Source: Candidatus Latescibacterota bacterium (lineage in GTDB: Bacteria; Latescibacterota; UBA2968; UBA8231). From it: a stretch of 64,000 nucleotides of DNA. A model generated the notes under the pieces. It was not told where the DNA came from. It ran no database searches and was given only the letters and a program-made list of their open reading frames with translations. The stretch covers positions 17,368-81,367 of the forward strand of contig SLHA01000013.1 of the NCBI GenBank assembly GCA_007136405.1, in the 5' to 3' direction. The position numbers and the translations under genes are program-made. This document shows positions 724-57,846 of this stretch, piece by piece. How positions within the stretch are numbered: the stretch's first letter is position 1; each line of letters begins with the position of its first letter.

Positions 724-1127
724 CAGGTGATCGATAACCTGGATAGTGAAGGCCGGGCGTGTCCAGTCGACATGTCCGGCCTTCTGTATGTGACGGAAGC
801 CTGATGTGACAGCAGCCGGGGATTCCGGCAGGTTTCCAGGAAGGCATCTCCGGGCAACGCCACACCGGCGCGGACGAGTGGAGCCGCTAGCAACCTTCCT
901 GTGCGGGCCGGGGCCGGGCTGGAAGATCGCGGCATCCCGTCACCCGAACGGCGGTATTCGCGTGCGGGCCGGGGCCGTGGGCGCCGCCAGGCGGAGCGGG
1001 TTCTGCGTTGACCCGGATAGCCGGGCGGGCTACTTTTCCGTGCGTCTGCAGCACCAGGCCGGATGCGATGACCGCGGCGGTCGCGGCACAGGCATGCCAT
1101 CCAACCAGCACTGACGGGGCAACCAGT

Positions 1128-1997
1128 ATGCAGAACGAATTTTACAAGGGGCATGGACTGGGTAACGACTACATCGCCCTGGATCCGGCCGGGTTGACCT
1201 TCCAGCTCACGCCGGAACGCATTCGTATGATCTGCGACCGCCATCGCGGTGTGGGCAGCGACGGTATCCTGGCCCTGACCGAACCTGACGGTGCGGATTA
1301 TGGGGTGCGCATCTACAACCCGGACGGCAGCGAGGCAGAAAAATCCGGCAACGGTCTGCGTATTTTTGCCCGCTACCTGTATTCCACCGGCCGTTGCACC
1401 CGCGAACACTTCACCGTGGATACCGCAGGTGGCAGGGTCTCTGTGGCGCTTCACCTGGACGAAAACCGGGAAGCGGCCGCGGCAACGGTGGAGATGGGCA
1501 AAGCCACGTTTCGGCCGCAGGCTCTGCCCTGCACCCTGACGGTGGAGGAGTTGATCGAGCAACCTGTAAGCGTAGCCGGCCATTCCCTGCGGTTCACCGG
1601 TGTCAGCGTCGGCAATCCGCATTGCGTCGTCTTCCGGCCCCAGGGTGCGCGTTGGAGCCGGGAGGAACTGCTGCAGCTCGGTCCGGCGCTGGAGCGACAC
1701 CCCATCTTCCCCCGCCGGACCAACGTGCAACTGGCGGTACCCATCGGCGCCCAACAGCTGTTCATACTGATCTGGGAACGCGGTGCCGGCGAGACGGAAG
1801 CCTCGGGGTCGTCAGCCTGCGCTGCCGCCACCGCAGGGGTACGGCTGGGGCTGGTTCGGAGTCCGGTGACGGTATCGGCTCCCGGGGGCGACCTGCAGAT
1901 CGAGGTCGCCGACGATCTGGATCTGACCATGCGGGGAGAGGTCGCCGAAGTCGCCCTCGGCACGCTCAGTGATGCCTTCATACGCGCCCTGCCCTGA
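1128..1997 (+). CDS. dapF: diaminopimelate epimerase
   Basis: MQNEFYKGHGLGNDYIALD... has the DapF N-terminal signature (GxGNDF/Y), and GNPHCVVF is the second catalytic-Cys region. The ATG at 1128 matches the family N-terminus; the longer ORF from 1008 is an upstream extension. Confidence 0.85.
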   Translation: MQNEFYKGHGLGNDYIALDPAGLTFQLTPERIRMICDRHRGVGSDGILALTEPDGADYGVRIYNPDGSEAEKSGNGLRIFARYLYSTGRCTREHFTVDTAGGRVSVALHLDENREAAAATVEMGKATFRPQALPCTLTVEELIEQPVSVAGHSLRFTGVSVGNPHCVVFRPQGARWSREELLQLGPALERHPIFPRRTNVQLAVPIGAQQLFILIWERGAGETEASGSSACAAATAGVRLGLVRSPVTVSAPGGDLQIEVADDLDLTMRGEVAEVALGTLSDAFIRALP

Positions 1998-3093
1998 GGC
2001 CGCGGGCGGAAGTGCGCAGATCGGCGCGGAACTGCGCGCCGCCTGGAACGAGCGGCTGTATTACTGGTGGCACTACTACAACCAGGAATATGCCGGCGGT
2101 GCACTCAAAGCTCCCACCATACACCTGGGACAGAGCCTGTCGCGCCTGGGCCACTGGGAACGCCACAGCCGTCGCCTCGTCATATCAGTACACCACATAG
2201 AGCGTGATCCATGGGTGGCCGTTCTGGCCACCCTGCGACACGAGATGGCGCATCAGTACGCTCATGAAGTGCTGCGCGCAGAGGCCGAATCGGCGCATGG
2301 CGATGCGTTTGCCAGCGCCTGCCATCGGTTGCGTTGTGAAACCGGCAGCACGGTTACCGGGCGTGGGTGTACCGTCGCCGGTGGTGAGGACGCATCGCCG
2401 CAGGAGCGTATCCTGGAACGGCTCCAGAAGGTTCTGTCGCTGGCGGCCGGTACCACCGAGCACGAGGCAGCGGCAGCGGTCAAGCAGGCGCGCCGGATGC
2501 TGCTCAGGTACAACATCACCGCTGCACAACTGCTCCGGAACCGGGTTTACGAACACCGGCATCTGGGGAAAGTCAAGGCCCGCCGGGCCTCGTACGAGCT
2601 CTGGCTGGCCCAGATACTACGAGAATTTTTCTTCACGGAAGTCATATGGGTGGAAAGCTATGACGCGCCGCAGAACCGGGTCGGCACGGTTCTGCGGATC
2701 TGCGGCTCACGACAGAACGTGGAACTGGCACAGCATGCCTACGAATACCTAACCGCGCTGATCGAGCGGCTCTGGTCTGGTTACCGGCGGCAACGCGGGT
2801 TGCCGGGCAACCGTGAACGACAGCGGTATTACGCCGGGGTGCTGGAGGGTTTCTGTACCCGCCTGCGCGAACAGGAACGTCGTATCCAGGCGGAAGGCCT
2901 GGTTTGGCTGGGAGACGGACAGCTAGTGGAGTACCATCGCTACCTGCATCCCCGCGTACGGAAGCGCCGCGGGCAAGGGGTCAGGGTTACCACAGCGTAC
3001 CGGGACGGACTCGAAGACGGGCGCCATGTGATCATTCATCATCCCCTGACGGCCACCAGCCGGGGGTTCGGCGGTTATCTGACCAGTGCATAG
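1969..3093 (+). CDS. SprT-like zinc-metallopeptidase-domain protein with a DUF2786-like C-terminal region
   Basis: HEMAHQYAHE is an HExxH motif in an SprT-like context. It overlaps the dapF end by 29 nt and the next gene by 8 nt, so translational coupling is likely. The start is uncertain. Confidence 0.6.
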   Translation: MMPSYAPCPEAAGGSAQIGAELRAAWNERLYYWWHYYNQEYAGGALKAPTIHLGQSLSRLGHWERHSRRLVISVHHIERDPWVAVLATLRHEMAHQYAHEVLRAEAESAHGDAFASACHRLRCETGSTVTGRGCTVAGGEDASPQERILERLQKVLSLAAGTTEHEAAAAVKQARRMLLRYNITAAQLLRNRVYEHRHLGKVKARRASYELWLAQILREFFFTEVIWVESYDAPQNRVGTVLRICGSRQNVELAQHAYEYLTALIERLWSGYRRQRGLPGNRERQRYYAGVLEGFCTRLREQERRIQAEGLVWLGDGQLVEYHRYLHPRVRKRRGQGVRVTTAYRDGLEDGRHVIIHHPLTATSRGFGGYLTSA

Positions 3094-5911
3094 ACGTGTA
3101 AACATCCTTCTGGCGGTGAGCGTACTGCTGTCTATCCTTCCAGCAGTGCAACCCGCCTGGCCGCAGTTCTCCCGGTTCGGCGTGAACAAAGTCCAGTTTA
3201 CCGAGTTCACGTGGCAGAAGCTGGAGACGCCCAATTTCGATCTCTACTTCTACGTGGAGGAGGAACTGCTGGCCGGCATCGCGGCAGAGATGGCCGAGGC
3301 GCAGTACGAGCGCCTGGAGCGGCTGTTCGGCCATAGCGTGGAACGGCGCATTCCTCTGATCGTGTACTCATCCCACATCTATTTCGAGCAGACTAATATC
3401 ATCCCCGGCATCCTGCCCGAGGGCGTAGGCGGTTTCATGGAATTCCTCAAGGGCAGGGTTGCGTTACCGCTGAGCGGCTCGCTCCCTGAATTCGAGCGCG
3501 TACTCGCCCATGAGCTGATCCACGTATTCACCTTTGACCGGATCCGTCAGGTACTCGGACGGCATGGAACCAGTAGAATCCGGATCCCTCCTCTGTGGTT
3601 GACCGAAGGGCTGGCCGAATACTGGGCTGGTCCATGGGATACGGAGGCCGACATGATCCTGCGTGATGCGATATTCGCGCAGCGCTTGATCTCGATCGAA
3701 CATATGCACCACATCGATGGCTCGTACCTCATGTACAAGAAGGGCCAGTCCATCTGCGCTTACATGGCCGAAACCTACGGAGAGGATATCTTCGAACGGC
3801 TGTTTACCAACTGGTGGCGCGGCGATGACTTCGCCGCCATCTTCGAGGCGGTGACCGGAGATCCGCTGTCGAAACTGGACACCAACTGGCAATACGCGCA
3901 ACGCAAACGATATCTGCCGGACATCACGCGGGGCGATCTCCCCTCCCATGCGGCCCGCCAGCTGACCACAGAAGGTTTCAACACCAAGCCTGCCGTCCTC
4001 ACGGGGACGGACAGCACGGCGTTTCTGTATTTTCGCAACACCCGGGGGTATACCCACATCGCCAGAACGACGCTTCCGGACGGAGAGACACGGGTAGTCG
4101 ACGCGGGTGAAAGGTCGCCCGCCATCGAATCGCTGCATCCGATGCGGTCCAGGCTGGCTATCGATGCAGAGGGCACCCGGCTGGCGTTTGCGGCCAAGCA
4201 ACGGGGCCGTGACCGGTTGTTCATCCAGGATCTGGGTACCGGCGAAACCGTCCATGACCTGGCCTTCGATTCTGTCATTGCCATCACTTCGCCCTCCTGG
4301 TCTCCGGACGGCCGCCGTCTTGCGTTCTCAGGAGCGGATTCCGGCGGCAAGACGGATCTCTACCTTTACGATCTCGATACCGGCACTCTGCGGCGGCTCA
4401 CGCATGATTTGTACCACGATCACGATCTCGTCTGGTCTCCGGCCGGCGATCATCTGGTATTCGTCTCGGATCGCTGTGTACACGGCAGGACGGGGCAATA
4501 CAGTCTCTTCCTCATGGAGCTGCCCGGGGGGCGTATCCTGCAGCTGACCAGGGGCGAGCACAGCGACATCCATCCTGCCTGGTCCGTCGACGGCCGCTAC
4601 ATCGCCTTCAGTTCGGACCGCAACGGCATCCACAACATCCATGCGCTGCGTCTTGAGACCGCGGAGGACAGCGGCGATCTGTGGCGCAGTGAACCGGAAC
4701 GTCTGACCCGGGTGTTGACCGGTGCATTCGCTCCTGCATGGCTCGACAACGGCCAGGGATTGTTGTATACCGGGTACGAGAACGGGTCGTTCCAGATTTT
4801 CACTGCGGAGGTGGAGCCAGAGGCCCTCGACCGTCTGGCAGCCGTGCACAGTATCCCCGCCGCACCCGACTCGGCCTGGCTGGCAGGCATCGTGGCGCCA
4901 CAGCCTGCGTACAATCGTCAGGACTACGAGCGCCAGCTCTCTCTGGACATCGCCCAGAGTCAGATTTCGCAGGATCCACAACTGGGCACCTCCGGGGGTA
5001 TTCAACTGGCGCTGAGTGATATCCTGGGCAACGAGCACTACTATTTCGTGCTCGCGCACGTGGCCGGGAGCCAGACCGGCATACTCGATGGCCTCAATGT
5101 AGCCATGGCTCATCTGCAGCAGGGTAGCCGGATCAACCGGATCTGGGGCCTTTACCGATATAACGAACGCCTGAACAGCCGGTACGGACGGTATGTCCGG
5201 GAGAAGCGTACGGGGGGGTTCCTGGAGCTGGAATATCCGTTCTCGCGGCATGACCGCCTCGAGGTCCGCCTGTCGCTGCGGCAGGCCAGAATAGACCGCG
5301 AACTCGAAGGCCGGCGCCTGGACGGATGGCTGGTGTCCAACATGATCAGTTATACCCACGACAACAGTCTCTGGATACCCACGGGGCCGCTGGAAGGGCA
5401 GCGCTACAGTATGGGTCTGGCGCAGACGGTGGATTTGCGGACGTCGCGCCGGTACAATACGACGATTTTCGGTGATTATCGCCGTTACTTCCGTCTGTCG
5501 CGCCGCAGCGCGCTGGCCACCCGGATCATGGCACGCCGAAGCCACGGGGACGTTCCGGAGTATTTCGCCCTCGGGGGCAGCTGGACCTTGCGCGGATACC
5601 CGTGGTTGTCTATCTGGGGCAACAAGATGATCCTGGCCAACACGGAGTTGCGATTTCCCCTGGTCGATCAGCTGGCCATACGCTTTCCGTTCGGGACCAT
5701 GGACTTCCGGGCGCTCCGGGGGGCTATGTTCGTAGATGCTGGCAATGCCTGGGAAAACGAGTTCGGCAGCTGGCGCGGCAGTGTCGGTGCGGGGGTTCGA
5801 CTGGCGCTGGGGGGTGCATTCGTGTTCAGGCTGGACGGCGCCCGTCGAACTGATTTCCGTTCTCTGGGGCGGGAGACGCACTGGGATTTCTTCTTCGGTT
5901 GGGACTTCTGA
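3086..5911 (+). CDS. secreted multidomain protein: peptidase-MA-like (HExxH) N-domain + TolB/PD40-like beta-propeller + Omp85/surface-antigen (D15) C-terminal beta-barrel
   Basis: N-terminal signal peptide (ILLAVSVLLSILPAVQPA). AHELIHVF is a zinc-protease motif in a Peptidase_MA-like context. PD40 repeats: SWSPDGRRLAF, WSPAGDHLVFVSDR, PAWSVDGRYIAFSSDR. The C-terminus has FVDAGNAW ... FFFGWDF, typical of Omp85-family barrels ending in an aromatic residue. Confidence 0.8.
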   Translation: MHRRVNILLAVSVLLSILPAVQPAWPQFSRFGVNKVQFTEFTWQKLETPNFDLYFYVEEELLAGIAAEMAEAQYERLERLFGHSVERRIPLIVYSSHIYFEQTNIIPGILPEGVGGFMEFLKGRVALPLSGSLPEFERVLAHELIHVFTFDRIRQVLGRHGTSRIRIPPLWLTEGLAEYWAGPWDTEADMILRDAIFAQRLISIEHMHHIDGSYLMYKKGQSICAYMAETYGEDIFERLFTNWWRGDDFAAIFEAVTGDPLSKLDTNWQYAQRKRYLPDITRGDLPSHAARQLTTEGFNTKPAVLTGTDSTAFLYFRNTRGYTHIARTTLPDGETRVVDAGERSPAIESLHPMRSRLAIDAEGTRLAFAAKQRGRDRLFIQDLGTGETVHDLAFDSVIAITSPSWSPDGRRLAFSGADSGGKTDLYLYDLDTGTLRRLTHDLYHDHDLVWSPAGDHLVFVSDRCVHGRTGQYSLFLMELPGGRILQLTRGEHSDIHPAWSVDGRYIAFSSDRNGIHNIHALRLETAEDSGDLWRSEPERLTRVLTGAFAPAWLDNGQGLLYTGYENGSFQIFTAEVEPEALDRLAAVHSIPAAPDSAWLAGIVAPQPAYNRQDYERQLSLDIAQSQISQDPQLGTSGGIQLALSDILGNEHYYFVLAHVAGSQTGILDGLNVAMAHLQQGSRINRIWGLYRYNERLNSRYGRYVREKRTGGFLELEYPFSRHDRLEVRLSLRQARIDRELEGRRLDGWLVSNMISYTHDNSLWIPTGPLEGQRYSMGLAQTVDLRTSRRYNTTIFGDYRRYFRLSRRSALATRIMARRSHGDVPEYFALGGSWTLRGYPWLSIWGNKMILANTELRFPLVDQLAIRFPFGTMDFRALRGAMFVDAGNAWENEFGSWRGSVGAGVRLALGGAFVFRLDGARRTDFRSLGRETHWDFFFGWDF

Positions 5912-7005
5912 TGGTCTTCCTCGCGGTGCCATTCACCTGGCTGCTCCTGCTGGCAGGCTGCGCGTCTCCATTGCTGTACCTTCCCAGCGAAGACGGCGAA
6001 GCGCGGTGCCGGCAGGATGACCGGCTGGAGGTCCCGGAGCCGCCGCTGCGCCAGTTGTGGCGGGTGGATCTCGGACGACCCACGATGGGCGCTCCCGTAG
6101 TGGCAGGCCCTGTCATACTGCTGTCCACTACCCATCCCGAACTGGTCGCCCTGGAACGGGCCACCGGGGAAAGATTGGGGGCGTTGAGCTACACCGGCGC
6201 ATTGGCGTCGCCTCCTGTGCACCATGGTCACCAGGTCATGGCGCCGATCCTGGGCACGGAGGGGCGGTTGCAGGTTCTGGACCGGCGTTCCGCGCAACTC
6301 GTGTGGGAGTCCAAAGGGCGGTTCAGCGCGCTGCTGGTCGTGTCCGCCGATACGCTGCTGGCTGCCCGGGAAGATGGCACGCTGCTGGCTCTGCGCCTGC
6401 AAGACGGCCAACAGTACTGGCGCGCGGATCTCCAGGACCGTGTCTGGGGCGGTCTCGCCGCGGACGCGACGACGGTGTACGCGGGAACCGCGCACGGCAA
6501 GCTGTGGGCGCTCGATCGGCACGATGGCCGTAAACGCTGGCAGGCGGACGTGGAGTCGGCGGTGCGAACACGACCTCTGCTGCTGGATTCGCTCGTCTAT
6601 GTGGGAACGGGCGCGGGTAACCTGGTTGCCGTGCACCAGTCCACCGGCAAACCGGGCTGGAGCACGGCGCTGGGAGCTCTGCCTGCGCCGGAACTCGTCG
6701 CTGGCGGTGAGGTGATCGTGGCCGGTGCCGCGGATCGCCGGCTGTATGCCATCGAGCCAGCCGATGGCAGGCTCAGATGGCGGTTCGAAACGGGTGGAGT
6801 GATCCGGGGCGGGGCGGCTGTAACACCCCGGACAGCGTATGTCGGCAGCAGCGACGGATACCTGTATGCTGTCGATCTGAACTCCGGCGCCCGGGTGTGG
6901 AGTCAGCGTCTGGATGGTCCGGTGCTCGTTCCGGTGACGCTGACTGCCGGTATGCTCGTGGCCGTATCGGAAAGAGGATCGGTCTATGCCTTTACCGCAG
7001 AATGA
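5899..7005 (+). CDS. BamB-like PQQ-repeat beta-propeller lipoprotein
   Basis: Lipobox LLLAGCAS. Repeated G-x-VY-x-G/DG-x-L-x-A-x-D-x-x-xG-x-x-W units (LWALDRHDGRKRWQ, LYAIEPADGRLRWRF, LYAVDLNSGARVWSQ). Overlaps the upstream gene's stop. Confidence 0.7.
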   Translation: MGLLMVFLAVPFTWLLLLAGCASPLLYLPSEDGEARCRQDDRLEVPEPPLRQLWRVDLGRPTMGAPVVAGPVILLSTTHPELVALERATGERLGALSYTGALASPPVHHGHQVMAPILGTEGRLQVLDRRSAQLVWESKGRFSALLVVSADTLLAAREDGTLLALRLQDGQQYWRADLQDRVWGGLAADATTVYAGTAHGKLWALDRHDGRKRWQADVESAVRTRPLLLDSLVYVGTGAGNLVAVHQSTGKPGWSTALGALPAPELVAGGEVIVAGAADRRLYAIEPADGRLRWRFETGGVIRGGAAVTPRTAYVGSSDGYLYAVDLNSGARVWSQRLDGPVLVPVTLTAGMLVAVSERGSVYAFTAE

Positions 7006-7561
7006 GCCTGTGGGGTGGGGGCGTCGCGTGTGCACATGCCTGCTGGTCTGCATGACTGTTGTCGCGCCAATAGCGGGGATTGCCGCGCCGGTGCCGGGGA
7101 TTGCCGCGCCGATGCTGGTGATTGCCCCGCCGATGCTGACGATCGCAGGACCCATGCGGTCGACAGAGCCGAATGCGGGGCCATGGGCGCATCTCCGGGC
7201 AGGGGATCGGCGTTGGCCTCTGATGGCGCCTGGTGACGGGCTCCATGCCCGTCCTTCACCTTCACTCACGCTGCCACGCCTTGCGTCCGGCAATGACAGG
7301 GCAGAACGGCAGCAGGGCACCATCATACCGCGTTCTCGGTGGTTCTACCTCGGTCTGGCGGTGTCCGCGGGCACCGCACTCTCGGCCTGGTGGAGCGAAC
7401 AACGCGCCAACGATGCCTATGACCGGTACATGCGTTCGGCGGGCCTGGCCCGGCAACAGCGAGCCTTCGCCCGGGCGGAACGGTACGACCGGCTGACCGG
7501 GGCCAGCCTGCTGGGTATGCAATTGGGTCTGATCTACACGGCCTATGTGTACTTCTACTGA
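6986..7561 (+). CDS. hypothetical protein; N-terminal region encoded by short tandem DNA repeats, C-terminal hydrophobic segment
   Basis: Long ORF. The N-terminus (IAGIAAPVPGIAAPMLVIAPPMLTIAGPM) comes from repeated GGGGATTGCCGCGCCG units. The C-terminal 70 aa look protein-like with a TM helix. Start is uncertain. Confidence 0.3.
   Translation: MPLPQNEPVGWGRRVCTCLLVCMTVVAPIAGIAAPVPGIAAPMLVIAPPMLTIAGPMRSTEPNAGPWAHLRAGDRRWPLMAPGDGLHARPSPSLTLPRLASGNDRAERQQGTIIPRSRWFYLGLAVSAGTALSAWWSEQRANDAYDRYMRSAGLARQQRAFARAERYDRLTGASLLGMQLGLIYTAYVYFY
7073..7150. repeat. short tandem repeats (GGGGATTGCCGCGCCG x2, GATGCTGxxGAT(T/C)GC x2)
   Basis: Directly visible. Encodes the IAGIAAPVPGIAAPMLVIAPPMLTIAGP tract of the 6986..7561 ORF. 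Confidence 0.8.
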
Positions 7562-8168
7562 GATACCTGTCCAGGCCTATCGTCGACCGTTGCCCCTGAT
7601 CGCCGGAGCGCTGCTGCTGTTGTTGCCGGGGCTCCTGGCCTGCGCGGATCGCACCCGGCAAAACCCGCTGGATCCCGAGGCGGACGCGCCTGACCGGTGG
7701 GTAGTCAGGCCGCTGCAGGCGCTGGCGGGTGACGGCGAGGTCCGTCTCACCTGGGATTACACCTACTACAGGGATATCAGCGGATACTACCTTTATCGTC
7801 GCGAGACCGGTGCGAATTTTCGCCGCCATCCGGACCGCCGGCTGGCGGCGGATACCACGGAGTATACCGACCTCGAGGTGAGTAACGGGGTGGAGTACGA
7901 ATACCGGCTGGATCTGGTCGTCGAGGGGGAAGGTCAGCGTTCGCTGGAGATCACCGCACGCGCTACACCTGCGCCGGCGCCGGAAGATGACGATAAACAA
8001 GATCACGATGAACGGGATGACGATGATCAAGATCACGATGATCAAGATCACGATGAACAGGATGACGATGATCAGGTAGAGGGCTCGCGGCTTCGCAGTG
8101 ACTTGCTGCCGTCCGGGTTGCATCGTACCATCACTCTTTTCCGCCCCATCGACAGGAACCGTACATGA
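7545..8168 (+). CDS. lipoprotein with FN3-like region and acidic His/Asp-rich repeat tail
   Basis: Signal peptide + lipobox (LLLLPGLLACAD). Central beta-rich region (RLTWDYTYYRDISGYYLYRR...EYEYRL). C-terminal DDDKQDHDERDDDDQDHDDQDHDEQDDDDQ tail. Preferred over the antisense all-Ile/Val/Leu ORF. Confidence 0.5.
   Translation: MCTSTEIPVQAYRRPLPLIAGALLLLLPGLLACADRTRQNPLDPEADAPDRWVVRPLQALAGDGEVRLTWDYTYYRDISGYYLYRRETGANFRRHPDRRLAADTTEYTDLEVSNGVEYEYRLDLVVEGEGQRSLEITARATPAPAPEDDDKQDHDERDDDDQDHDDQDHDEQDDDDQVEGSRLRSDLLPSGLHRTITLFRPIDRNRT
7986..8075. repeat. tandem GAT/GAC-rich repeats (units like GATCACGATGAAC(G/A)GGATGACGATGATCAA)
   Basis: Directly visible. Encodes a D/H/Q/E tail on the + strand and a poly-Ile/Val/Leu tract on the - strand. 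Confidence 0.85.
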
Positions 8169-9043
8169 TCACCAGCATGACCGGCTTCGGCCGGGGCACC
8201 GCCACAGACAACGGCCTTCAGGTGCGTGTCGAGTTGCGCTCGGTAAACAGCCGTTTCTTCGATCTCCAGGTACGTGCCGCGAACGGGTTGCAGGCATGCG
8301 AGGCTGCGGTGCGGGAGAGGTTGCAGGATCACCTGAGGCGCGGCAAGGTGGTGGCGCAGATCGATTGGGACCAGGGCCAGGCAGATGCCGGGATGCCGCT
8401 TCTGGATGAGGACGCAGCGCGGCACTATGTCCGTGAGCTGGCCCGTCTGCGAGCGATCGCCGGACTGGAGCAGCAACCGGACTGGAACACCTGGGCGCAG
8501 TTGCCGGGACTGTTTTCCGCCGAGGCGGCGCACCCGGACAGCGCGCTCGTGGAACGCCTCGTGCTGGTGGCCTTGGACCGGGCCCTGGAGGCCTTTGCCA
8601 GCATGCGCGAGAACGAAGGCCGGGCTCTGGAACGGGATCTGCGCGACCGGGTGGCGGCCATACAGGCGAATCTGGTGTCGATAAGCGGGTTGGCAGATGC
8701 CCAGCGTGATCGGATCAGAGAACGGCTGCAGGAACGGGTGCAGGCCCTGCTGGCGCCTGGGCAGGTGGACCCGAACCGCCTGACCATGGAGGTGATGCTG
8801 CTGGCCGAACGATGCGATATGACCGAGGAGATCGTACGTTTCCAGAGTCACAATACCCAGTTTCTGGCCACCCTGGACCAGGGCGGAGAGACGGGGCGCC
8901 GGTTGAACTTCCTGCTGCAGGAGATGAACCGGGAAGCGAATACCATAGCCTCCAAGACCGTGAGTGCGGAGATCAGCCACCAGGCGGTGAGCATCAAGGA
9001 AGAGGTAGAGAAGCTGCGTGAGCAAGTCCAGAATCTGGTGTGA
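8165..9043 (+). CDS. yicC: YicC-family stress-induced protein
   Basis: Begins MITSMTGFGRG, the canonical YicC N-terminus, followed by a coiled region. About 290 aa. Confidence 0.85.
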   Translation: MITSMTGFGRGTATDNGLQVRVELRSVNSRFFDLQVRAANGLQACEAAVRERLQDHLRRGKVVAQIDWDQGQADAGMPLLDEDAARHYVRELARLRAIAGLEQQPDWNTWAQLPGLFSAEAAHPDSALVERLVLVALDRALEAFASMRENEGRALERDLRDRVAAIQANLVSISGLADAQRDRIRERLQERVQALLAPGQVDPNRLTMEVMLLAERCDMTEEIVRFQSHNTQFLATLDQGGETGRRLNFLLQEMNREANTIASKTVSAEISHQAVSIKEEVEKLREQVQNLV

Positions 9044-9050
9044 CAGCGGT

Positions 9051-9602
9051 ATGGACAACAACCCGTCCATGGTGACGGTGAGTGGTTTACCCGGTAGTGG
9101 AACCACCACGGTCTGCGGCGTGCTGCAGCGACACCTGGGATGGGTTCATCTCAATGCCGGCGCCATCTTTCGACAGCTGGCGGCAGAGGCCGGATTGGAC
9201 CTGGCCACCTACGGCAGGCGCGCCGAACTGGACGGCTCCATAGACTGCCGTCTCGACGCGCGCATGGTGGCCATGGCCCGCCAGGAGGGTCATGCCATCC
9301 TGGAAGGACGGCTTACCGGCTGGATGGCCAAGCGGCACCAGCTGCCGGCGTTGCGCTGCTGGGTGGATGCCCCGATTTCGGTTCGTGCGGCCCGGGTCAG
9401 TCAGCGCGACCAGCAGCCCCTGGATGAGGCGATCACAGGCATGCAACAGCGGGAGGCGTCGGAAGCGCAGCGATACAAGGCCTTTCATTCGATCGACATC
9501 ACGGAGTATTCCGTATACCACGTGGTTCTGGACTCCGAGCATCGATCCGCGGACCAGATCGCGGACCACATCATATCCTGTTTGAGGGAGGCCGGAGCAT
9601 GA
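9051..9602 (+). CDS. archaeal-type (family 2) cytidylate-kinase-like NMP kinase
   Basis: P-loop VTVSGLPGSGTTTV followed by LEGRLTGWM, matching archaeal/short Cmk. ATG at 9051 avoids overlap with yicC; the longer ORF from 9018 is possible. Confidence 0.7.
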   Translation: MDNNPSMVTVSGLPGSGTTTVCGVLQRHLGWVHLNAGAIFRQLAAEAGLDLATYGRRAELDGSIDCRLDARMVAMARQEGHAILEGRLTGWMAKRHQLPALRCWVDAPISVRAARVSQRDQQPLDEAITGMQQREASEAQRYKAFHSIDITEYSVYHVVLDSEHRSADQIADHIISCLREAGA

Positions 9603-10846
9603 GCCTGCATAACCGGAGTGTGCTTCTGGGTATCTCCGGAGGTATTGCCGCCTACAAGGCACCGCTGATTCTGCGCGGACTGCAGGCCGAAGGCGCCGAC
9701 GTTCGCGTGGTGCTGACGGAGAACGCCCACAGGTTCGTGGCGCCGGTACCGCTGGAGGTGCTGTCCCGCCATCCTGTGCACACCGGCATGTTCGAAACGG
9801 ACGCGGAATTCGCCGTCCTGCATGTAGGGCTGGCCGCGTGGGCAGACCTGGTTCTGGTTGCGCCCGCTACCGCGCAGTTGCTGGCCAGAATGGCCCATGG
9901 TCTGGCGGATGACCTGCTTTCCGGTGTGCTGCTGGGCACCACGGCGCGGATCGTACTGGCACCCTCCATGGAGGAGCACATGCTGGACCATCCGGCCACT
10001 CAGGCGAACCTGGACATCCTGCGCCGCCGGGGGTGCTGTATCATAGAGCCGGACAGCGGTGCGCTGGCCTCCGGCGGTTCGGGGCGCGGCAGACTGCCGG
10101 AACCGGATCAGATCGTGCGCCAGGTTGATGACTTGCTGGCGGCAACGGGTGATCTGGGCGGTCTCCGGGTGCTGGTGACCGCTGGTCCCACGTACGAGGA
10201 TATCGACCCGGTGCGGTATATCGGCAATCGCTCCAGCGGCAAGATGGGGTACGCCCTCGCGCGCCGGGCACGTGCCCGCGGAGCCGCCGTGCACCTGATC
10301 TCGGGGCCCACAGCTCTCCGCGTTCCCTCAGGGGTGAAGGCTGATTTCGTGCGCAGCACATGCCAGATGCAGGCCGCCGCCGAAGCCGTTTTCGACCAGG
10401 TGGATGTGGCCATCATGGCGGCCGCACCCAGTGATTTTCGGCCGCGGTCTCCGGCCGCCACCAAGATACGGCGGGAAGCCGGAGAGATGAGTATCGAACT
10501 GCTACCCAATCCGGACATCGCCGCAGCCCTGGGGCAGCGCAAGCGCACTGATCAGCAGCTCGTGGTGTTCGCGTTGGAGACGGGTGACGGTGAGCGAAAT
10601 GCCCGGGAGAAAATGGCCAGGAAAAAGGCGGACCTGGTGGTATTGAACAGCCTGGACGACGCGGGCGCTGGTTTCGAGGTGGATACCAACGTCGTCACCC
10701 TCATCAGCCGGGATGGTATACCCGAGCGTCTGCCTTGTCTGGACAAGGAGGTTGTGGCGGACCGGATCCTGGACCGGGTCGCACCGCAGCGGTCAGCCAC
10801 TGCAACCGCGGGCAGGCAACAGACCGAAGGCGACAAGGATACCTGA
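9599..10846 (+). CDS. coaBC: bifunctional phosphopantothenoylcysteine decarboxylase / phosphopantothenate--cysteine ligase
   Basis: N-terminal flavoprotein domain (LLGISGGIAAYKAPLILRGL) and C-terminal CoaB domain (GNRSSGKMGYALA, DFRP). ATGA overlap with the upstream stop. Confidence 0.9.
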   Translation: MSLHNRSVLLGISGGIAAYKAPLILRGLQAEGADVRVVLTENAHRFVAPVPLEVLSRHPVHTGMFETDAEFAVLHVGLAAWADLVLVAPATAQLLARMAHGLADDLLSGVLLGTTARIVLAPSMEEHMLDHPATQANLDILRRRGCCIIEPDSGALASGGSGRGRLPEPDQIVRQVDDLLAATGDLGGLRVLVTAGPTYEDIDPVRYIGNRSSGKMGYALARRARARGAAVHLISGPTALRVPSGVKADFVRSTCQMQAAAEAVFDQVDVAIMAAAPSDFRPRSPAATKIRREAGEMSIELLPNPDIAAALGQRKRTDQQLVVFALETGDGERNAREKMARKKADLVVLNSLDDAGAGFEVDTNVVTLISRDGIPERLPCLDKEVVADRILDRVAPQRSATATAGRQQTEGDKDT

Positions 10847-10850
10847 GCCC

Positions 10851-11744
10851 ATGACCGAGAGCGGAACAGAGAACGCGGTACAGGTTCTGGCCGGCGCGCG
10901 GCGTTTCCTCGAGGATCTGGCCGCTATGGAAGGCAACCTTCTCCTGGTTCCGGCGGGCGCTCCGGACAGCGCTCAGTATGCTGCAAATCCGGTGGGCACT
11001 TCGGACAGCGCCCAGTCTGACGATCTGCCGGTGGGCGCTCCGGACAGCGTCCAGTCTGACGCACAGCCCCCGGGTGCTTCGGGGCCTGATCGGCTCCAGG
11101 ATCTGGCGGCGGACGTCCCGGAGCGCGGCAATACGGCAGATCGGTCCGCAGGCAAGCCGGGTGCCGGTACGCCAGGTGCCGGCAAGACCGGGGAACTGGA
11201 GGTGTTGCGCCGGACCATCACCCGGTGCGAGCGCTGCGGGCTCTGCCACGTGCGGAACCGGCTGGTCTTCGGGAGCGGTGCCGTGGATGCCGGGATCCTG
11301 TTCGTCGGCGAGGCCCCGGGTGTCGACGAGGACCGTCAGGGCGAGCCCTTCGTGGGGGCCGCCGGGCAGTTGCTGACCCGGATCATCCAGTCCATGCAGC
11401 TGCGCCGTGACGAAGTCTATATCGCCAATGTGCTGAAATGCCATCCGCCGGGAAACCGGGATCCTAAACCGGAGGAAATCGCTGCGTGCGAGCCTTTTCT
11501 GCAGCAGCAGGTGCAGATCGTTCAGCCGCGCATCATCTGCGCCCTCGGCCGGATTGCTGCCCAGTCGCTGCTGCAGACGGACGCGTCCCTGACGCAGCTG
11601 CGCGGATCCCTGCATGAATACGCCGGTATTCCGGTCATCTGTACTTATCATCCATCCGCGCTGCTGCGCGATGCCACGCACAAGCGTCCTACATGGGAAG
11701 ACGTCAAGTGGCTGCGTCGCGAGTACGACGGTACGGAACTGTAG
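10851..11744 (+). CDS. uracil-DNA glycosylase family 4 with low-complexity N-terminal extension
   Basis: CERCGLC...GEAPG...ANVLKCHPPGNRDP...HPSALLR are the family-4 UDG Fe-S and catalytic motifs. The N-terminal ~130 aa are repeat-rich. Start at MTESG. Confidence 0.8.
   Translation: MTESGTENAVQVLAGARRFLEDLAAMEGNLLLVPAGAPDSAQYAANPVGTSDSAQSDDLPVGAPDSVQSDAQPPGASGPDRLQDLAADVPERGNTADRSAGKPGAGTPGAGKTGELEVLRRTITRCERCGLCHVRNRLVFGSGAVDAGILFVGEAPGVDEDRQGEPFVGAAGQLLTRIIQSMQLRRDEVYIANVLKCHPPGNRDPKPEEIAACEPFLQQQVQIVQPRIICALGRIAAQSLLQTDASLTQLRGSLHEYAGIPVICTYHPSALLRDATHKRPTWEDVKWLRREYDGTEL
10953..11062. repeat. three imperfect copies of GGTGGGCGCTCCGGACAGCG(C/T)CCAGTCTGACG
   Basis: Directly visible within the N-terminal extension of the UDG gene (PAGAPDSAQY / PVGTSDSAQSDD / PVGAPDSVQSDA). 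Confidence 0.8.
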
Positions 11745-11845
11745 CACCCCGGTGCAACCTGCCGCTGTAAGGTCTCGCACCCCGGACCGCGGCGACGACA
11801 CCCGCAGAAGAACCCGTTTCTCCATACCAGGGCAGACAGGAAGCG

Positions 11846-13240
11846 ATGAACGAAGCAGGCGGAGGCAACGGACAGAGCCTTGAGCGCATGCCGCCGCAGG
11901 CGGTGGACGTGGAGCAGGCCGTATTGGGCGCCATGCTGATCGACCAACGCGCCATCGGGCGAGCGGTGGAACTCCTGGATGAAGGTTGTTTCTACTACAG
12001 TCCACACAGCCGGATCTTCCGGGCCATTCTGGCGCTGTACGAGCGCGGTGAAGCCGTCGATCAACTGACTCTGGCAGAGGAGCTGAAACGTCACTCGAAA
12101 CTGGAAGAGGCCGGGGGGGTGGTCTATCTGGCCCGGTTGGCCACCGAAGTGGCGACCGGTGCCAACATCGAACACCATGCGCGCATCGTCCTGGAAAAAT
12201 CCCTGAGTCGCAAACTCATCGAGACGGCCTCGGAGGTCAGTGAGGCCGCGTACGAGGGCCGTCGCAACGTGCAGGAACTGGTGGACTGGGCCGAACAGCG
12301 CATCTTCGGCCTGTCTGAACGCGGCATGAGCGACGGTTTCGAAGCGCTCGAGCATGTCATGAGCGCAACGCTCGAGCAGATAGAGCGAGCGCACAACCGG
12401 GTCAGTACGGTGTCCGGTGTCGACACGGGGTTTACGGAGTTGAATGACCTCACTTCCGGTTTCCAGCCCGGTGACGTCATCATCCTGGCGGCCCGGCCTT
12501 CGGTGGGCAAGACGGCCTTGGCCCTGACGCTGGCCCGGAACGCGGCGGTGGATTCAGGCGTGGGCGTGGCCATCTTCAGTCTGGAGATGTCCAAGATGCA
12601 GCTGGCGCAACGCCTGCTGAGCGCGGAAACGCGGGTCGATCTGCACCGGTTGCGCACCGGGCGTCTCAGTGACGAGGACTGGCTGCACCTGACCCGCAAT
12701 GTGGGGCGTCTGGCCCAAGCTCCCATCTTCGTGGATGACACACCGGGGCTCTCCGTGCTGGAGGCGCGGGCCAAGGCGCGCCGCCTGCAGCGAGAACACG
12801 GTATCGGCCTGGTCATCATCGACTATCTGCAGCTGATGAGTGCCCATGAGCGGGTTAACAGCCGGGAGCAGGAGATATCACGTATCTCGCGGGGGCTGAA
12901 GGGGATGGCCAAGGAGCTCAATGTCCCGGTTCTGGCTCTGTCGCAGTTGTCGCGTGCCGTGGAGGGGCGAACCGACCGTCGTCCGCAGCTGTCCGATCTG
13001 CGCGAAAGCGGCAGTATCGAACAGGATGCCGATGTCGTGATGTTCATCTACCGGCCGGAAATATACGGACTCCAGGGACCGGATGGAGCCAGTCTGGAGG
13101 GCATTGCCGAGATCATCATCGGCAAGCAACGCAACGGTCCGATAGGATCCGTTCGACTGCAGTGGAATGCGGAGAGCGCTACCTACGAGCAGCTCGCCCC
13201 GGAGTGGCGTCTCGAGCCGGACGAGGAAGAACCCTACTGA
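11846..13240 (+). CDS. dnaB: replicative DNA helicase
   Basis: N-terminal DnaB domain (PPQAVDVEQAVLGAML). Walker A ARPSVGKTALAL, then IIDYLQLM and SQLSR motifs. 464 aa with no intein. Confidence 0.9.
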   Translation: MNEAGGGNGQSLERMPPQAVDVEQAVLGAMLIDQRAIGRAVELLDEGCFYYSPHSRIFRAILALYERGEAVDQLTLAEELKRHSKLEEAGGVVYLARLATEVATGANIEHHARIVLEKSLSRKLIETASEVSEAAYEGRRNVQELVDWAEQRIFGLSERGMSDGFEALEHVMSATLEQIERAHNRVSTVSGVDTGFTELNDLTSGFQPGDVIILAARPSVGKTALALTLARNAAVDSGVGVAIFSLEMSKMQLAQRLLSAETRVDLHRLRTGRLSDEDWLHLTRNVGRLAQAPIFVDDTPGLSVLEARAKARRLQREHGIGLVIIDYLQLMSAHERVNSREQEISRISRGLKGMAKELNVPVLALSQLSRAVEGRTDRRPQLSDLRESGSIEQDADVVMFIYRPEIYGLQGPDGASLEGIAEIIIGKQRNGPIGSVRLQWNAESATYEQLAPEWRLEPDEEEPY

Positions 13241-38685: not shown

Positions 38686-40401
38686 ATGGTCGCGTGTGTG
38701 CATGTGACCCATGAGGCGGTACGGCAATCCGGCGGGATCGGCACGGTGCTGCGCGGCCTGCTGACCACGGGCTCATACCGTCAGCGGGTCGGCCGAACGC
38801 TTTTGCTGGGACCACTGGAGGACAGCGGCGCCAGGGAGCTGTCGGCGCCGGACAACTCCTTGCTGTACGACAGTGCCCGCCAGGTGCGGTATGCCGACGC
38901 ATCGGCGGCGCTGGACCGGGTGGCGGCGGCTCATGGCGTGCGCCTGGTATATGGCGTACGCCAGTTGCGGGATCAATACGGCGAAACCGCGGTGGAAGTT
39001 CTGCTGGTCGATGTCGAAGCGCCGGGTCTGCACGTCGATGCGTTCAAGTACTATCTGTCCGAGCACTTCGGCCTGGATTCGCGCCGGTACGAGGTCACCC
39101 CGGAGTATGAACGGTACCTTCGGCTGGCCGAACCCGGTTTCGAAGGAATTCGCGCTCTCCTCGGCTCATCGGACGAATTGTGCTGGCTCATCGGCCATGA
39201 ATTCATGGGGGTGTGCACCCTGCTCAAATCCATGCTGGCGGGTGACCAGCGGTTTCGAACGGCTTTCTATGCGCATGAAGTGGCCACAGTGCGCATGCTG
39301 GTAGAGGACACGCCGGGGCGCGACATCATGTTCTACAATGTGTTGCGCCTGGCCCGGCGTGAAGGGGGATACCTGACCGACCATTTCGGGCCCCAGGAAT
39401 GGTATCACAAACACGCACTGATCAGCCAGGCCTGGCGCTGTGATGCCTTGCTGGCGGTGGGTGACTGGGTGGTGGAGGAGCTGCGTTTTCTGGGACCGGA
39501 TTTCGACCGGCATGACATTTCTCTGGTATACAATGGGATACCTTCCTCTGCGGTGCCGCGGGAGGCGCGGGCAGAATCGCGCCAGCGACTGGAACGCTAT
39601 GTAGAGGCGCTGCTCGGGTACCGGCCGGACTGGATTTTCACCCATGTGACCCGGTTGGTGTCCAGCAAGGCGCTCTGGCGTGATCTGCTCGTGTTGCGTG
39701 GCATGGACAACGCGTTGGTGCAGCGGGGCCAGCGCGCGGTGTTGCTGATGCTGGCTACGGAAGTGGGCCGGCGGCAACCCGAGGCGGTGTGGCGTATGGC
39801 GGCGGAGTATGGTTGGCCGCTGGTACACCGGGAAGGGTATCCGGACCTGACGCCTGGTGAACTCCAGTTCGACTTTCAGGTCAGGGCGCTGAATGCGGCG
39901 TGCCAGGCAGTCTCCGTGATCTACATCAACCAGTTCGGTTTTGACCAGAGCAGTTGCGGACCGGCCATGCCGGCGGACATGTCTTTCGCCGATATCCGGC
40001 AGGGCACCGACGCCGAGTTCGGCCAGTCCATTTATGAACCTTTCGGGATCGCCATGCTCGAGCCGTTGAATGCCGGCGCCATCAGCGTGATCAGCGATGC
40101 CTGTGGATGTCTGGGATTTCTCGAGCGCACGGTCGGGCGGGATTTCGCTGCATTGGTCGAAGGGCAGTACACGCGTCTGGAAGACACGCTGGATATCCGC
40201 ATGGCGCGCAACCTGGGCGCCGAGGAACGCGATCGCGCCGAGGTCGCCGAGAGCCACAGAGTAGCCGAGTTGCTGCTGGAACGGTTGTCCGCTGATCCCG
40301 AAACCCGGGACCGGTTGCTGCGTCAGGGCCATGAGGCGGCGCAGCTGATGAGCTGGGAATGCGTCGCCGAGCAGATGTTTCTTCCGGCCCTGGGAATATA
40401 G
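38686..40401 (+). CDS. GT-B fold glycosyltransferase (glycogen/starch-synthase-like GG[IL]G N-motif; GT4/GT5-like)
   Basis: N-terminal VTHEAVRQSGGIGTV resembles the KTGGLGDV motif of glucan synthases. C-terminal EPFGIAMLEPLNAG is the E-x7-E region. GGAGGAGGG Shine-Dalgarno upstream of the ATG. Confidence 0.65.
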   Translation: MVACVHVTHEAVRQSGGIGTVLRGLLTTGSYRQRVGRTLLLGPLEDSGARELSAPDNSLLYDSARQVRYADASAALDRVAAAHGVRLVYGVRQLRDQYGETAVEVLLVDVEAPGLHVDAFKYYLSEHFGLDSRRYEVTPEYERYLRLAEPGFEGIRALLGSSDELCWLIGHEFMGVCTLLKSMLAGDQRFRTAFYAHEVATVRMLVEDTPGRDIMFYNVLRLARREGGYLTDHFGPQEWYHKHALISQAWRCDALLAVGDWVVEELRFLGPDFDRHDISLVYNGIPSSAVPREARAESRQRLERYVEALLGYRPDWIFTHVTRLVSSKALWRDLLVLRGMDNALVQRGQRAVLLMLATEVGRRQPEAVWRMAAEYGWPLVHREGYPDLTPGELQFDFQVRALNAACQAVSVIYINQFGFDQSSCGPAMPADMSFADIRQGTDAEFGQSIYEPFGIAMLEPLNAGAISVISDACGCLGFLERTVGRDFAALVEGQYTRLEDTLDIRMARNLGAEERDRAEVAESHRVAELLLERLSADPETRDRLLRQGHEAAQLMSWECVAEQMFLPALGI

Positions 40402-49639: not shown

Positions 49640-50156
49640 GAAAACAAAGTTGAATCAGGATGGGCGCATGTCGCGCATGAGAATCACTATCCACAGAATA
49701 TGGCCCGATGCATCAACAGAGGCAAGCAGTGCACATCTGATGGGCGGCAACCGGGTGTTTACTTCTGGCCGCTGTACAGGGCGTGTCCTATTTTCTATGA
49801 GGTTGCTGCCGCCGTGCCGGGCAGACGGCCTGTGCTGTCCCGGCGCCCGTCAACCGCCACCTTCGTCGTTGTGATCCGTATCTGATGACCCGTATGAGGC
49901 CCGGTGTGTTCCCGGCACTGTCCGGCGACTGCCTGCGTGCATCCGGCTATGGCCGGTGTCCAGCTCTTGTACCTGGCCAGAATGGCGCGGCCATTCCGGC
50001 GGGTGCCGGTCTGGGTCCGGACGCTGGAAAGGCTTACATCGACGCATATGCAGCCCGCCTCGTGGTGCAATCGGCGGGTATGCCTGGAGACAGCCCAACG
50101 GCGGTCAGTCATGCGGTGTCTGGACACGCATGCTGTCCGGGGAAAGTGTGGCGTTC

Positions 50157-56740: not shown

Positions 56741-57820
56741 TCACGGGCTCCACCGGGCAATCCGGTCCAGCGCGGCAGCGGCGCTTTCCTGGTCGCTCAC
56801 GCCGCTCACCAGCAACCAGGCCCCTTCTGGACGCAAGGCCTGGAAAACCTCCGGCAGCTCCCGCACCGAAACGTTGAGACAGAACGACTTGCCGCGCTGC
56901 TGAATGCGGCGGTACACCGGCACCCACTGGCGCCAATGGTCCCGGCCCGCGCCGGGCACCCACTGGATCGCATGGATCTGAGGCAGATCGAGCAGTATAT
57001 CCAGGTAACGCAAGGCCTGGGGACCGTCGAGATGGTAGATGCACCGGTCCATGGGCTCGCATTCGCGCACGATCCCGGGTAGAAAGATGTCCTGGAACAT
57101 GCGGTCGGTGATCATGCAGGAGAAATCATTGGACGGCACGTGAAACTTGCCGCGGCAGGTAGCCGGCAGCCAGGTGGTGCTCGGCATCCCGGCGGCGCTC
57201 AATCGTCGATGGTAAAAGTCGTACACCTGAAGGAAATCCGTGGTGATCCGCTCTACCAGGGAGCGCACCTCCGCGGGATGTTCGATCATGTCCAGGCACA
57301 GTTGCTGTGGATCGCGGAACGCGGCGACGGCATCACCACCGCCGTGCAGATCCGTGTACCCCACGATGAACCGCCCCCGCCCGGCTTCGATCAGGGCGTC
57401 GGTCATCTCCGTGAGCTTGGCGCCGTACGGTCCCGTCAGGTCCAGTTGCAGTTGATCGAGGGCGGCCTGGCCCCAATCATGCAGGATAGGCAAGCTCCAG
57501 GAGGTGGTTTCTCCGAACTCCAGGGGACAGCCGTACAATGCGGAGAAAATCTCCGGTCCCAGATTGGGGTAGGTGACGGGCAGAGCATCGGCATGAAAGC
57601 AGGTGTTGGCCATGCGGGAACAGGCCTGCTCGACCACCCACTGGGTGTCCAGCCAGCGGTCGCGCAGCGTGGCATGGTGGCGCGGTGCGGGCGGGGGGAT
57701 CTGGTTCCGTTGCGGCCGAGGAAAGGTCATCGACACCAGGGGGCGATCGATGATCTGAGCGTCCCACCACGCTTCGTACCGGTCAAGTACCGCATCGAAA
57801 TCCGGTTTGCATTCGAACAT
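56741..57820 (-). CDS. hypothetical protein, possibly UroD-like (uroporphyrinogen decarboxylase/methyltransferase) fold
   Basis: Weak resemblance (…IYHLDGP..., length) to the UroD family. No strong motif. Confidence 0.4.
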   Translation of the reverse strand: MFECKPDFDAVLDRYEAWWDAQIIDRPLVSMTFPRPQRNQIPPPAPRHHATLRDRWLDTQWVVEQACSRMANTCFHADALPVTYPNLGPEIFSALYGCPLEFGETTSWSLPILHDWGQAALDQLQLDLTGPYGAKLTEMTDALIEAGRGRFIVGYTDLHGGGDAVAAFRDPQQLCLDMIEHPAEVRSLVERITTDFLQVYDFYHRRLSAAGMPSTTWLPATCRGKFHVPSNDFSCMITDRMFQDIFLPGIVRECEPMDRCIYHLDGPQALRYLDILLDLPQIHAIQWVPGAGRDHWRQWVPVYRRIQQRGKSFCLNVSVRELPEVFQALRPEGAWLLVSGVSDQESAAAALDRIARWSP

Positions 57821-57846
57821 GCGCTACGTTCCTTCGGTTGGCAAGA

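Follow-up and report, generated by a model that had tools for sequence, protein, structure and literature searches.

A conserved, uncharacterised fusion of a zinc peptidase, a TolB-like propeller and a POTRA-less Omp85 barrel in a Latescibacterota genome

The stretch of DNA analysed in this study (hereafter the window) comprises 64 kb of contig SLHA01000013.1 from a Candidatus Latescibacterota bacterium (GenBank assembly GCA_007136405.1) and contains a gene for a 941-amino-acid (aa) protein in which a zinc peptidase, a beta-propeller and an Omp85-type barrel are joined on one chain. This gene (open reading frame (ORF) 2, hereafter the fusion) is located between an SprT-like gene (ORF1) and a gene for a PQQ-type propeller lipoprotein (ORF3), and two further small genes (ORF4 and ORF5) come next (Table 1). 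All of them belong to a co-directional array at 1068-13240, which is composed of dapF, ORF1, the fusion, ORF3, ORF4, ORF5, yicC, a cmk-like gene and coaBC, followed by udg and dnaB on the same strand.

Table 1. Genes, domains and motifs of the fusion locus, with positions in the window.
Feature	Position	Strand	Basis or remark
ORF1, SprT-like (HEMAH) + DUF2786 + DUF7168, without signal peptide	1972..3093	+	Pfam; public gene call, 373 aa
Fusion gene (ORF2), 941 aa: signal peptide, gluzincin peptidase, six-bladed propeller, POTRA-less Omp85 barrel	3086..5911	+	
Predicted signal peptide, residues 1-27, MHRRVNILLAVSVLLSILPAVQPAWPQ	3086..3166	+	Read from sequence
Conserved N-terminal motif FGxNKVQYxxFxW and gluzincin zinc-peptidase domain, residues 28-290	3167..3955	+	
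HExxH motif (HELIH, residues 142-146; H142, E143, H146)	3509-3523	+	
Third zinc ligand E174	3605-3607	+	
Invariant Y217/K218	3734-3739	+	
Six-bladed PD40 / TolB- and Tricorn-like beta-propeller, residues 295-576	3968..4813	+	PD40 Pfam match
Linker, poorly conserved, low-confidence, residues 577-617, without POTRA	4814..4936	+	Pfam, model, alignment
16-strand Omp85 barrel, residues 618-941, and stop codon	4937..5911	+	PF01103, Foldseek, model
L6 motif R836-G837-Y838 (TLRGY)	5591-5599	+	On loop 822-846, between beta11 and beta12
Beta13 motif D884-x-G886 (FVDAG, 882-886)	5735-5743	+	Second strand after L6
ORF3, PQQ-type (BamB-like) beta-propeller lipoprotein, 364 aa	5911..7005	+	Public gene call, start ATG 5911
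ORF3 lipobox LAGC	5950-5961	+	
ORF4, PEGA/hairpin family member	6986..7561	+	Third conserved gene of the module
ORF5, lipoprotein, lipobox LLAC, Asp/His-rich tail	7590..8168	+	Public gene call; homologues in 11/80 loci

Pfam matches were counted above the gathering score, and NCBIfam equivalogs were judged against their own cutoffs. Peptidase_MA_2 (residues 138-269), PD40 and Omp85 matches on the fusion bear out the tripartite composition put forward in the original prediction, and we are highly confident of its architecture and family assignment. An alignment of 33 homologues served as input for an AlphaFold2 model of the fusion (mean predicted local distance difference test score (pLDDT) 78), and conservation was measured over 75 aligned full-length orthologues, drawn from species-level genomes that represent about nine phyla.

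In the model, an N-terminal helix (residues 2-20) lies in the signal-peptide stretch, which is variable among homologues, and residues 40-290 form a mainly helical domain, the peptidase, which like the propeller is well defined. The closest folds to this domain were the Grimontia M9 collagenase (14.3) and the M30 lugdulysin (14.2), followed by the M1 aminopeptidases ERAP1, APN and F3 (11-13), thermolysin (8.2) and BepA (5.5), while a sequence-profile search of the PDB yielded only a marginal match (E 0.005), to the segment of M9 collagenase that carries the zinc ligands. With an HExxH motif, a Glu further downstream as zinc ligand and a thermolysin-like fold, the domain belongs to the gluzincins of clan MA(E). 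The zinc-metallopeptidase-like motif recognized earlier thus extends to a full HExxH...E constellation, with H142, E143, H146 and E174 found in all 75 sequences; Y217 and K218 are equally invariant (100%), and E178 is kept in 99%. No domain of the fusion is better conserved than the peptidase, in which 16% of positions are kept in at least 97% of sequences. Because its catalytic residues are invariant over phyla, the enzyme is almost certainly active, and the possibility of a pseudo-peptidase was rejected on the same ground.

The propeller (residues 298-575 in the model) consists of about 22 strands that make up six blades, with pLDDT of about 85-95. In a Foldseek search of the PDB the best match was TolB (E about 5e-13), ahead of S9 peptidases and the Tricorn protease, and precomputed labels from a newer Pfam release assign the region to Tricorn_N / Tricorn_2nd. 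Unlike the fusion, the Tricorn protease and S9 peptidases are cytosolic or soluble, carry serine-protease catalytic domains and have no membrane barrel. When the full-length profile was searched against the PDB, only TolB-type propellers and a marginal BamA barrel match were retrieved, and no solved structure of a family member was among them. TolB itself was rejected as an identity, since the TIGR02800 model scores 120.5 bits against a cutoff of 343 with the propeller alone matching, the fusion lacks the N-terminal domain of TolB, and tol/pal genes are not found next to it.

The closeness of the propeller to TolB would favour a non-catalytic tether, in which the propeller, like that of TolB, binds Pal/OmpA-like proteins or peptidoglycan, the barrel serves as an anchor and the peptidase-like domain is a binding module. 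We consider this very improbable. Every gluzincin catalytic residue is 100% conserved and the peptidase is the best-conserved domain, whereas the propeller is the least conserved folded domain (5% of positions kept in at least 97% of sequences); the missing TolB N-terminal domain and the TIGR02800 score below cutoff also speak against it.

The C-terminal part of the fusion falls into the Omp85/TpsB family, with PF01103 (Omp85) matching residues 695-939 at 38.6 bits against a cutoff of 24. Foldseek against the PDB related it to Toc75 (7xzi) and the BamA of F. nucleatum (9ccg). Eleven strands precede the long loop 822-846 in the model and five follow it, which gives 16 strands in the canonical Omp85 arrangement. 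The Omp85 motifs were defined as (V/I)RG(F/Y) for L6, between beta11 and beta12, and (F/G)xDxG for beta13, which carries the DxG. Across the 75 sequences R836 (100%), G837 (95%), D884 (100%) and G886 (99%) are conserved and G938 is invariant. The C-terminal beta-signal, FFFGWDF in the window, is conserved as FFFGW(D/N)(F/Y). Among the positions kept in at least 97% of sequences are 14% of the presumed beta1-beta2 region and 12% of the barrel, and invariant charged residues occur in an alternating register (D797/R799/Y801/R803, E854/R856 and R915/D917).

An N-terminal POTRA domain is typical of the Omp85 family, although not universal. No PF07244 match was found in the fusion, and the model contains no beta-alpha-alpha-beta-beta element between the end of the propeller (residue 576) and the barrel. 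The earlier description of a POTRA-less barrel ending in FFFGWDF, for which 16 strands were to be expected, therefore agrees with PF01103, the structure model and the motif conservation. Canonical BamA was rejected because the fusion is far below the cutoff of TIGR03303 (27.6 bits against 297.15) and lacks POTRA domains, of which BamA has five. Canonical TamA was rejected as well, with a score below cutoff, none of the three POTRA domains of TamA and no TamB-like gene among the conserved neighbours. That the fusion would be neither of the two had also been foreseen. We conclude that the fusion is exported by Sec and resides in the outer membrane, with a barrel of 16 strands that has no POTRA and keeps the hallmark motifs of Omp85. 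Three invariant segments have a pLDDT below 50, namely residues 28-45, 104-124 and 619-637 (3167-3220, 3395-3457 and 4940-4996), and may represent interfaces for partners or substrates, a mobile flap at the active site or the lateral-gate strand.

The fusion family is widespread. A protein search gave 2,356 database clusters of the same length and architecture, and a genome scan detected the family in genomes of at least 582 species, the majority belonging to the FCB superphylum. Among the matches listed are Latescibacterota, Gemmatimonadota, Zixibacteria, Ignavibacteria, Calditrichota, KSB1, Marinimicrobia, Eisenbacteria and other metagenome-assembled genomes labelled as Bacteroidota. Identity is about 58% within Latescibacterota and 35-43% elsewhere, falling with taxonomic distance, and the genes next to the fusion are housekeeping genes (dapF, pgi, ptsI, yicC, coaBC). 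Identity that tracks taxonomy together with such neighbours fits vertical inheritance. Unbiased all-against-all clustering of flanking ORFs at 79 loci revealed nothing conserved upstream of the fusion beyond lineage-specific housekeeping genes.

The architecture itself is not new. Heinz & Lithgow 2014 (Front Microbiol 5:370, PMC4104836) listed it as the "WD40-like" Omp85 subfamily, with PF07676 + PF01103 architectures in Table S2 and, for each member in Table S3, a TolB match and a "best aminopeptidase hit" (such as F3, APA, ERAP1 or ColT). Members named there include proteins of Caldithrix abyssi (H1XQ58), Rhodothermus marinus (D0MEQ5), Salinibacter ruber (Q2RZZ9), Chlorobaculum parvum (B3QRX6), Anaeromyxobacter (B4UC98) and Sorangium, and the authors likened the family to a BamA-BamB fusion, suggesting the propeller as a BamB substitute; for other accessory Omp85/TpsB subfamilies they described a patchy distribution resembling horizontal gene transfer (PMC4104836). 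Set beside the text and Tables S2/S3 of PMC4104836, that is, compared by description, the fusion shows every feature of the subfamily, including the same PF07676 and PF01103 matches, the lack of POTRA, the TolB-like propeller and the aminopeptidase/collagenase-like N-terminus, with no structural difference. The fusion of the window is thus an orthologue of the WD40-like Omp85 subfamily, which was catalogued in 2014 and is uncharacterised. To that catalogue the present analysis adds the invariance of the catalytic site, a coupled gene for a BamB-like lipoprotein, a PEGA/hairpin gene after it, a conserved stop/start overlap, and the exclusion of the SprT-like gene from the module.

Conservation of the gene neighbourhood was assessed by comparing the proteins of the window by tblastn with 80 fetched fusion loci, from which the per-locus neighbour counts are taken. 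A gene similar to ORF3 is located directly downstream of the fusion in 64 of these 80 loci, in many phyla, and unbiased clustering recovered a 392-aa family after the fusion in 63 of 79 loci. ORF3 is matched by PQQ_2 (PF13360) at 158.9 bits, above the gathering score, and of 63 ORF3 homologues checked, at least 43 carry a lipobox. The link between the fusion and a downstream BamB-like lipoprotein, which the original prediction proposed, is hence supported by adjacency; the lipobox LAGC and the PQQ_2 match agree with the type of protein that it named. Like BamB (YfgL), ORF3 is a lipoprotein with a PQQ-type propeller and PF13360; unlike BamB, it is below the TIGR03300 cutoff, and the fusion offers no POTRA3 for it to bind. 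Canonical BamB identity was rejected on account of the score.

Junctions between the fusion and the lipoprotein gene were examined at 72 loci. The form T[GA]ATG occurs at 28 of them, including the window (5907-5913), and is conserved across phyla; many of the others have gaps of 0-7 nucleotides (nt). As a consequence of this overlap, naive ORF calling adds spurious MGFLM or MEFLM N-termini to the lipoprotein, which are the GW(D/N)F-stop codons of the fusion read in another frame.

The third conserved gene of the module is ORF4, instead of the SprT-like gene. Its family was found directly after the BamB-like gene in 39 loci by unbiased clustering, that is, in 39 of the 80 loci. In the window ORF4 begins with a signal-like stretch, and its C-terminal part (about 7337-7558) is a conserved hydrophobic hairpin of two helices. 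Members from other phyla (for example L008:9968-10792, L014:9899-10705 and L029:10009-10779) comprise a signal peptide, two PEGA domains and the hairpin, which is arranged around a charged K..AD..YD.Y...RYDR loop; PEGA matches were obtained in seven of eight distant members, and the PEGA part is missing from ORF4 in the lineage of the window. A 21-bp tandem repeat at 7059-7138 encodes an Ala/Pro/Ile-rich stretch of ORF4. Homologues of ORF5 follow ORF4 in 11 of the 80 loci, a few of them outside Latescibacterota; ORF5 is a lineage-restricted neighbour and possibly an accessory component. It has no Pfam or NCBIfam match, and its Asp/His-rich acidic tail arises from a 15-bp tandem repeat at 7984-8074.

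The original prediction had envisaged a three-protein outer-membrane machine composed of the SprT-like protein, the fusion and the BamB-like lipoprotein. ORF1 is matched by SprT-like (PF10263, 32.8 bits against a cutoff of 25.6, motif HEMAH), DUF2786 and DUF7168. It is packed against the fusion, with an 8-nt overlap or a 22-nt gap depending on the start, and the four closest relatives that have ORF1 (L001, L004, L005 and L006) carry it on the upstream side of the fusion. These are the only four of the 80 loci in which an ORF1-like gene was found upstream, leaving 76 loci without it, and in the close Latescibacterota relatives L002, L003 and L011 dapF directly abuts the fusion. The ORF1 family, which has a fixed architecture (163 matches), also occurs at loci of Planctomycetota and Acidobacteriota (L081, L083) with unrelated neighbours and no fusion gene. 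At L084:4863-6954, in an 8.4-Mb genome, an ORF1 homologue follows dapF with no fusion gene at the locus, which indicates that ORF1 tracks dapF and not the outer-membrane module. ORF1 has no signal peptide and no transmembrane segment, so its product would be cytoplasmic, and tblastn against phage and plasmid collections gave no match to it and hence no sign of a mobile-element gene.

Tight packing is no better guide to such a unit. With dapF at 1068-1997 and the end of coaBC at 10846, almost every junction between them measures -26 to +28 nt, and overlap alone therefore does not delimit three genes. A consensus scan identified no promoter-like sites in the window, and terminator-like sites were at the level of shuffled controls, so that transcription units cannot be set from the sequence. 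Both synteny and predicted location thus exclude ORF1 as a component of the module; it is a neighbour restricted to the lineage of the window, probably co-transcribed here, and a machine that includes it is extremely improbable. What stands of the three-gene proposal is the fusion with its conserved lipoprotein partner, adjacent in 64 of 80 loci, which keeps the notion of a dedicated outer-membrane machine alive in part, whereas the ORF1-fusion pair (4/80) does not hold.

The coupling overlaps of 8 and 13 nt that had been proposed apply only to the longest forms of the three ORFs, at 1969-3093 (374 aa, from an alternative GTG start at 1969), 3086-5911 (941 aa) and 5899-7005 (368 aa). With the public starts they become a 22-nt gap, as the fusion then begins at 3116 (931 aa), and a 1-nt TGATG overlap, in which ATG 5911 of ORF3 shares one base with the TGA of the fusion. 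We kept GTG 3086 as the likely start of the fusion because the signal peptide is then more typical, its n-region being charged (HRR), while the TTG at 5899 is probably an over-extension of ORF3.

Considered as a whole, these observations are in our view best explained by a housekeeping, periplasm-facing outer-membrane zinc protease complex that performs quality control or processing of envelope proteins, a reading held tentatively and at slightly under an even chance. An invariant catalytic site and a fixed small gene module over hundreds of species point to a conserved housekeeping role. How such envelope proteolysis might proceed is a more tentative matter, and the following scheme is offered as a possible one. 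In the canonical topology the polypeptide reaches beta1 from the periplasmic side, and both soluble domains would therefore face the periplasm, as do the N-terminal domains of characterised Omp85 proteins, with the barrel as the outer-membrane anchor of the enzyme. Unfolded polypeptides of the beta-barrel or secretory kind may dock at the conserved beta1 / lateral-gate region, and the propeller could act as a substrate filter or holder that gates unfolded substrates to the peptidase, by analogy with Tricorn and the S9 peptidases. The fusion would work with the translationally coupled BamB-like lipoprotein and, in most lineages, also with the PEGA protein held by its C-terminal helical hairpin. 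The complex might then conduct quality control or processing of outer-membrane-targeted proteins in a manner analogous to BepA with BAM. In both cases a periplasmic HExxH zinc protease would be tied to an Omp85 barrel in the service of quality control; BepA, however, is a separate M48-family protein with a TPR domain, whereas the protease of the fusion is covalently joined to the barrel.

Several points weigh against the protease-complex reading. No substrate can be named for the complex, and we infer the membrane side of the peptidase from canonical Omp85 topology. The partner falls short of the BamB equivalog, as ORF3 scores 170.5 bits with TIGR03300 against a cutoff of 285.2, and PQQ-type propellers are generic; BamB is among its PDB matches (E 1e-22), and archaeal and actinobacterial PQQ-like propellers match ORF3 equally well or better. 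Sixteen of the 80 loci gave no BamB-like tblastn match, some of them on contigs that end soon after the fusion. The literature search returned the 2014 catalogue and one passing mention, and no experimental study of any family member, in line with the earlier remark that no characterised example was known. Finally, the barrel probably does more than anchor passively, since its charged residues in alternating register and its beta1 region are invariant.

In a different reading, the fusion is a specialised Omp85 insertase or translocase whose barrel inserts or exports dedicated substrates while the peptidase trims, matures or clears stalled ones. The lipoprotein would then be a BamB-like scaffold and the PEGA/hairpin protein an inner-membrane link, loosely comparable to TamB with TamA. 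Such a function is consistent with the invariance seen in the L6 motif, the beta13 motif, the beta1 region and many charged residues in lumen register, and also with the conserved lipoprotein and hairpin-protein partners and the comparison to a BamA-BamB fusion made by Heinz & Lithgow (PMC4104836). With BamA and TamA the fusion shares the 16-strand barrel, the L6 RG(Y/F/W) and beta13 DxG motifs, the C-terminal aromatic beta-signal and a propeller lipoprotein encoded or acting alongside; it differs from them in having an enzyme domain, no BamD or TamB partner nearby and scores far below the BamA and TamA equivalog cutoffs. It also lacks POTRA, the substrate-handling module of BamA, TamA and FhaC. 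Moreover, flanking-ORF clustering found no candidate cargo gene conserved beside the module, and the most conserved domain is the peptidase instead of the barrel. We therefore regard an insertase or translocase as unlikely.

A third reading would make the fusion an autotransporter resembling type V(d) systems, with the peptidase and propeller as a passenger exported by their own barrel and acting as a surface or released protease in nutrient acquisition. The order of an N-terminal enzyme and a 16-strand Omp85-type barrel is indeed that of PlpD, the closest peptidase folds are those of secreted M9 collagenases and M30 proteases, and a long low-confidence linker precedes the barrel. To our knowledge, however, there is no precedent for such a barrel exporting a folded six-bladed propeller (about 280 aa) together with a peptidase of 260 aa. 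The passenger of PlpD is a patatin and is accompanied by POTRA, whereas the fusion has no Pfam match to either. The distribution of PlpD is patchy (PMC4104836). The housekeeping context and vertical-looking inheritance of the fusion likewise contrast with the patchy occurrence of other accessory subfamilies (PMC4104836). The partner lipoprotein shows no obvious acidic surface-export signal after the Cys, which is a weak argument. An autotransporter is accordingly judged quite unlikely.

Extending the protease-complex reading, the fusion, the lipoprotein and the PEGA/hairpin protein could together form an unrecognised FCB-wide envelope machine, in which substrates would pass from the lateral gate through the propeller to the protease site and the hairpin protein would possibly tie the assembly to the inner membrane. 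This extension is doubtful; if true, the machine would represent a proteolytic counterpart of BAM/TAM that Proteobacteria lack. Outer-membrane biogenesis centres on Omp85 proteins, yet as far as we know studies of them have been confined to BamA, TamA, TpsB, PlpD and the organellar forms. Whereas E. coli needs the separate proteins BepA or DegP for proteolysis in outer-membrane handling, a fused protease-Omp85 would be a natural experiment on the coupling of proteolysis to outer-membrane protein handling. The practical gain lies in a corrected module (fusion, lipoprotein and PEGA/hairpin protein) together with cultured hosts in which it could be tested.

Elsewhere in the window, no tRNA or tmRNA genes and no Rfam families at gathering score were identified over the whole 64 kb. 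Two ORFs at 38686-40401 (571 aa) and 57140-58591 (483 aa) are coding-like in their third-codon-position GC content (GC3; 0.75 and 0.69, respectively), with no Pfam match at E <= 0.001. A 1,481-aa ORF at 49956-54401 combines a fatty-acyl reductase (NAD_binding_4 + Sterile) with an AMP-binding domain and a weak acyltransferase match, and our guess is that it encodes an enzyme of the ether-lipid or wax-ester type.

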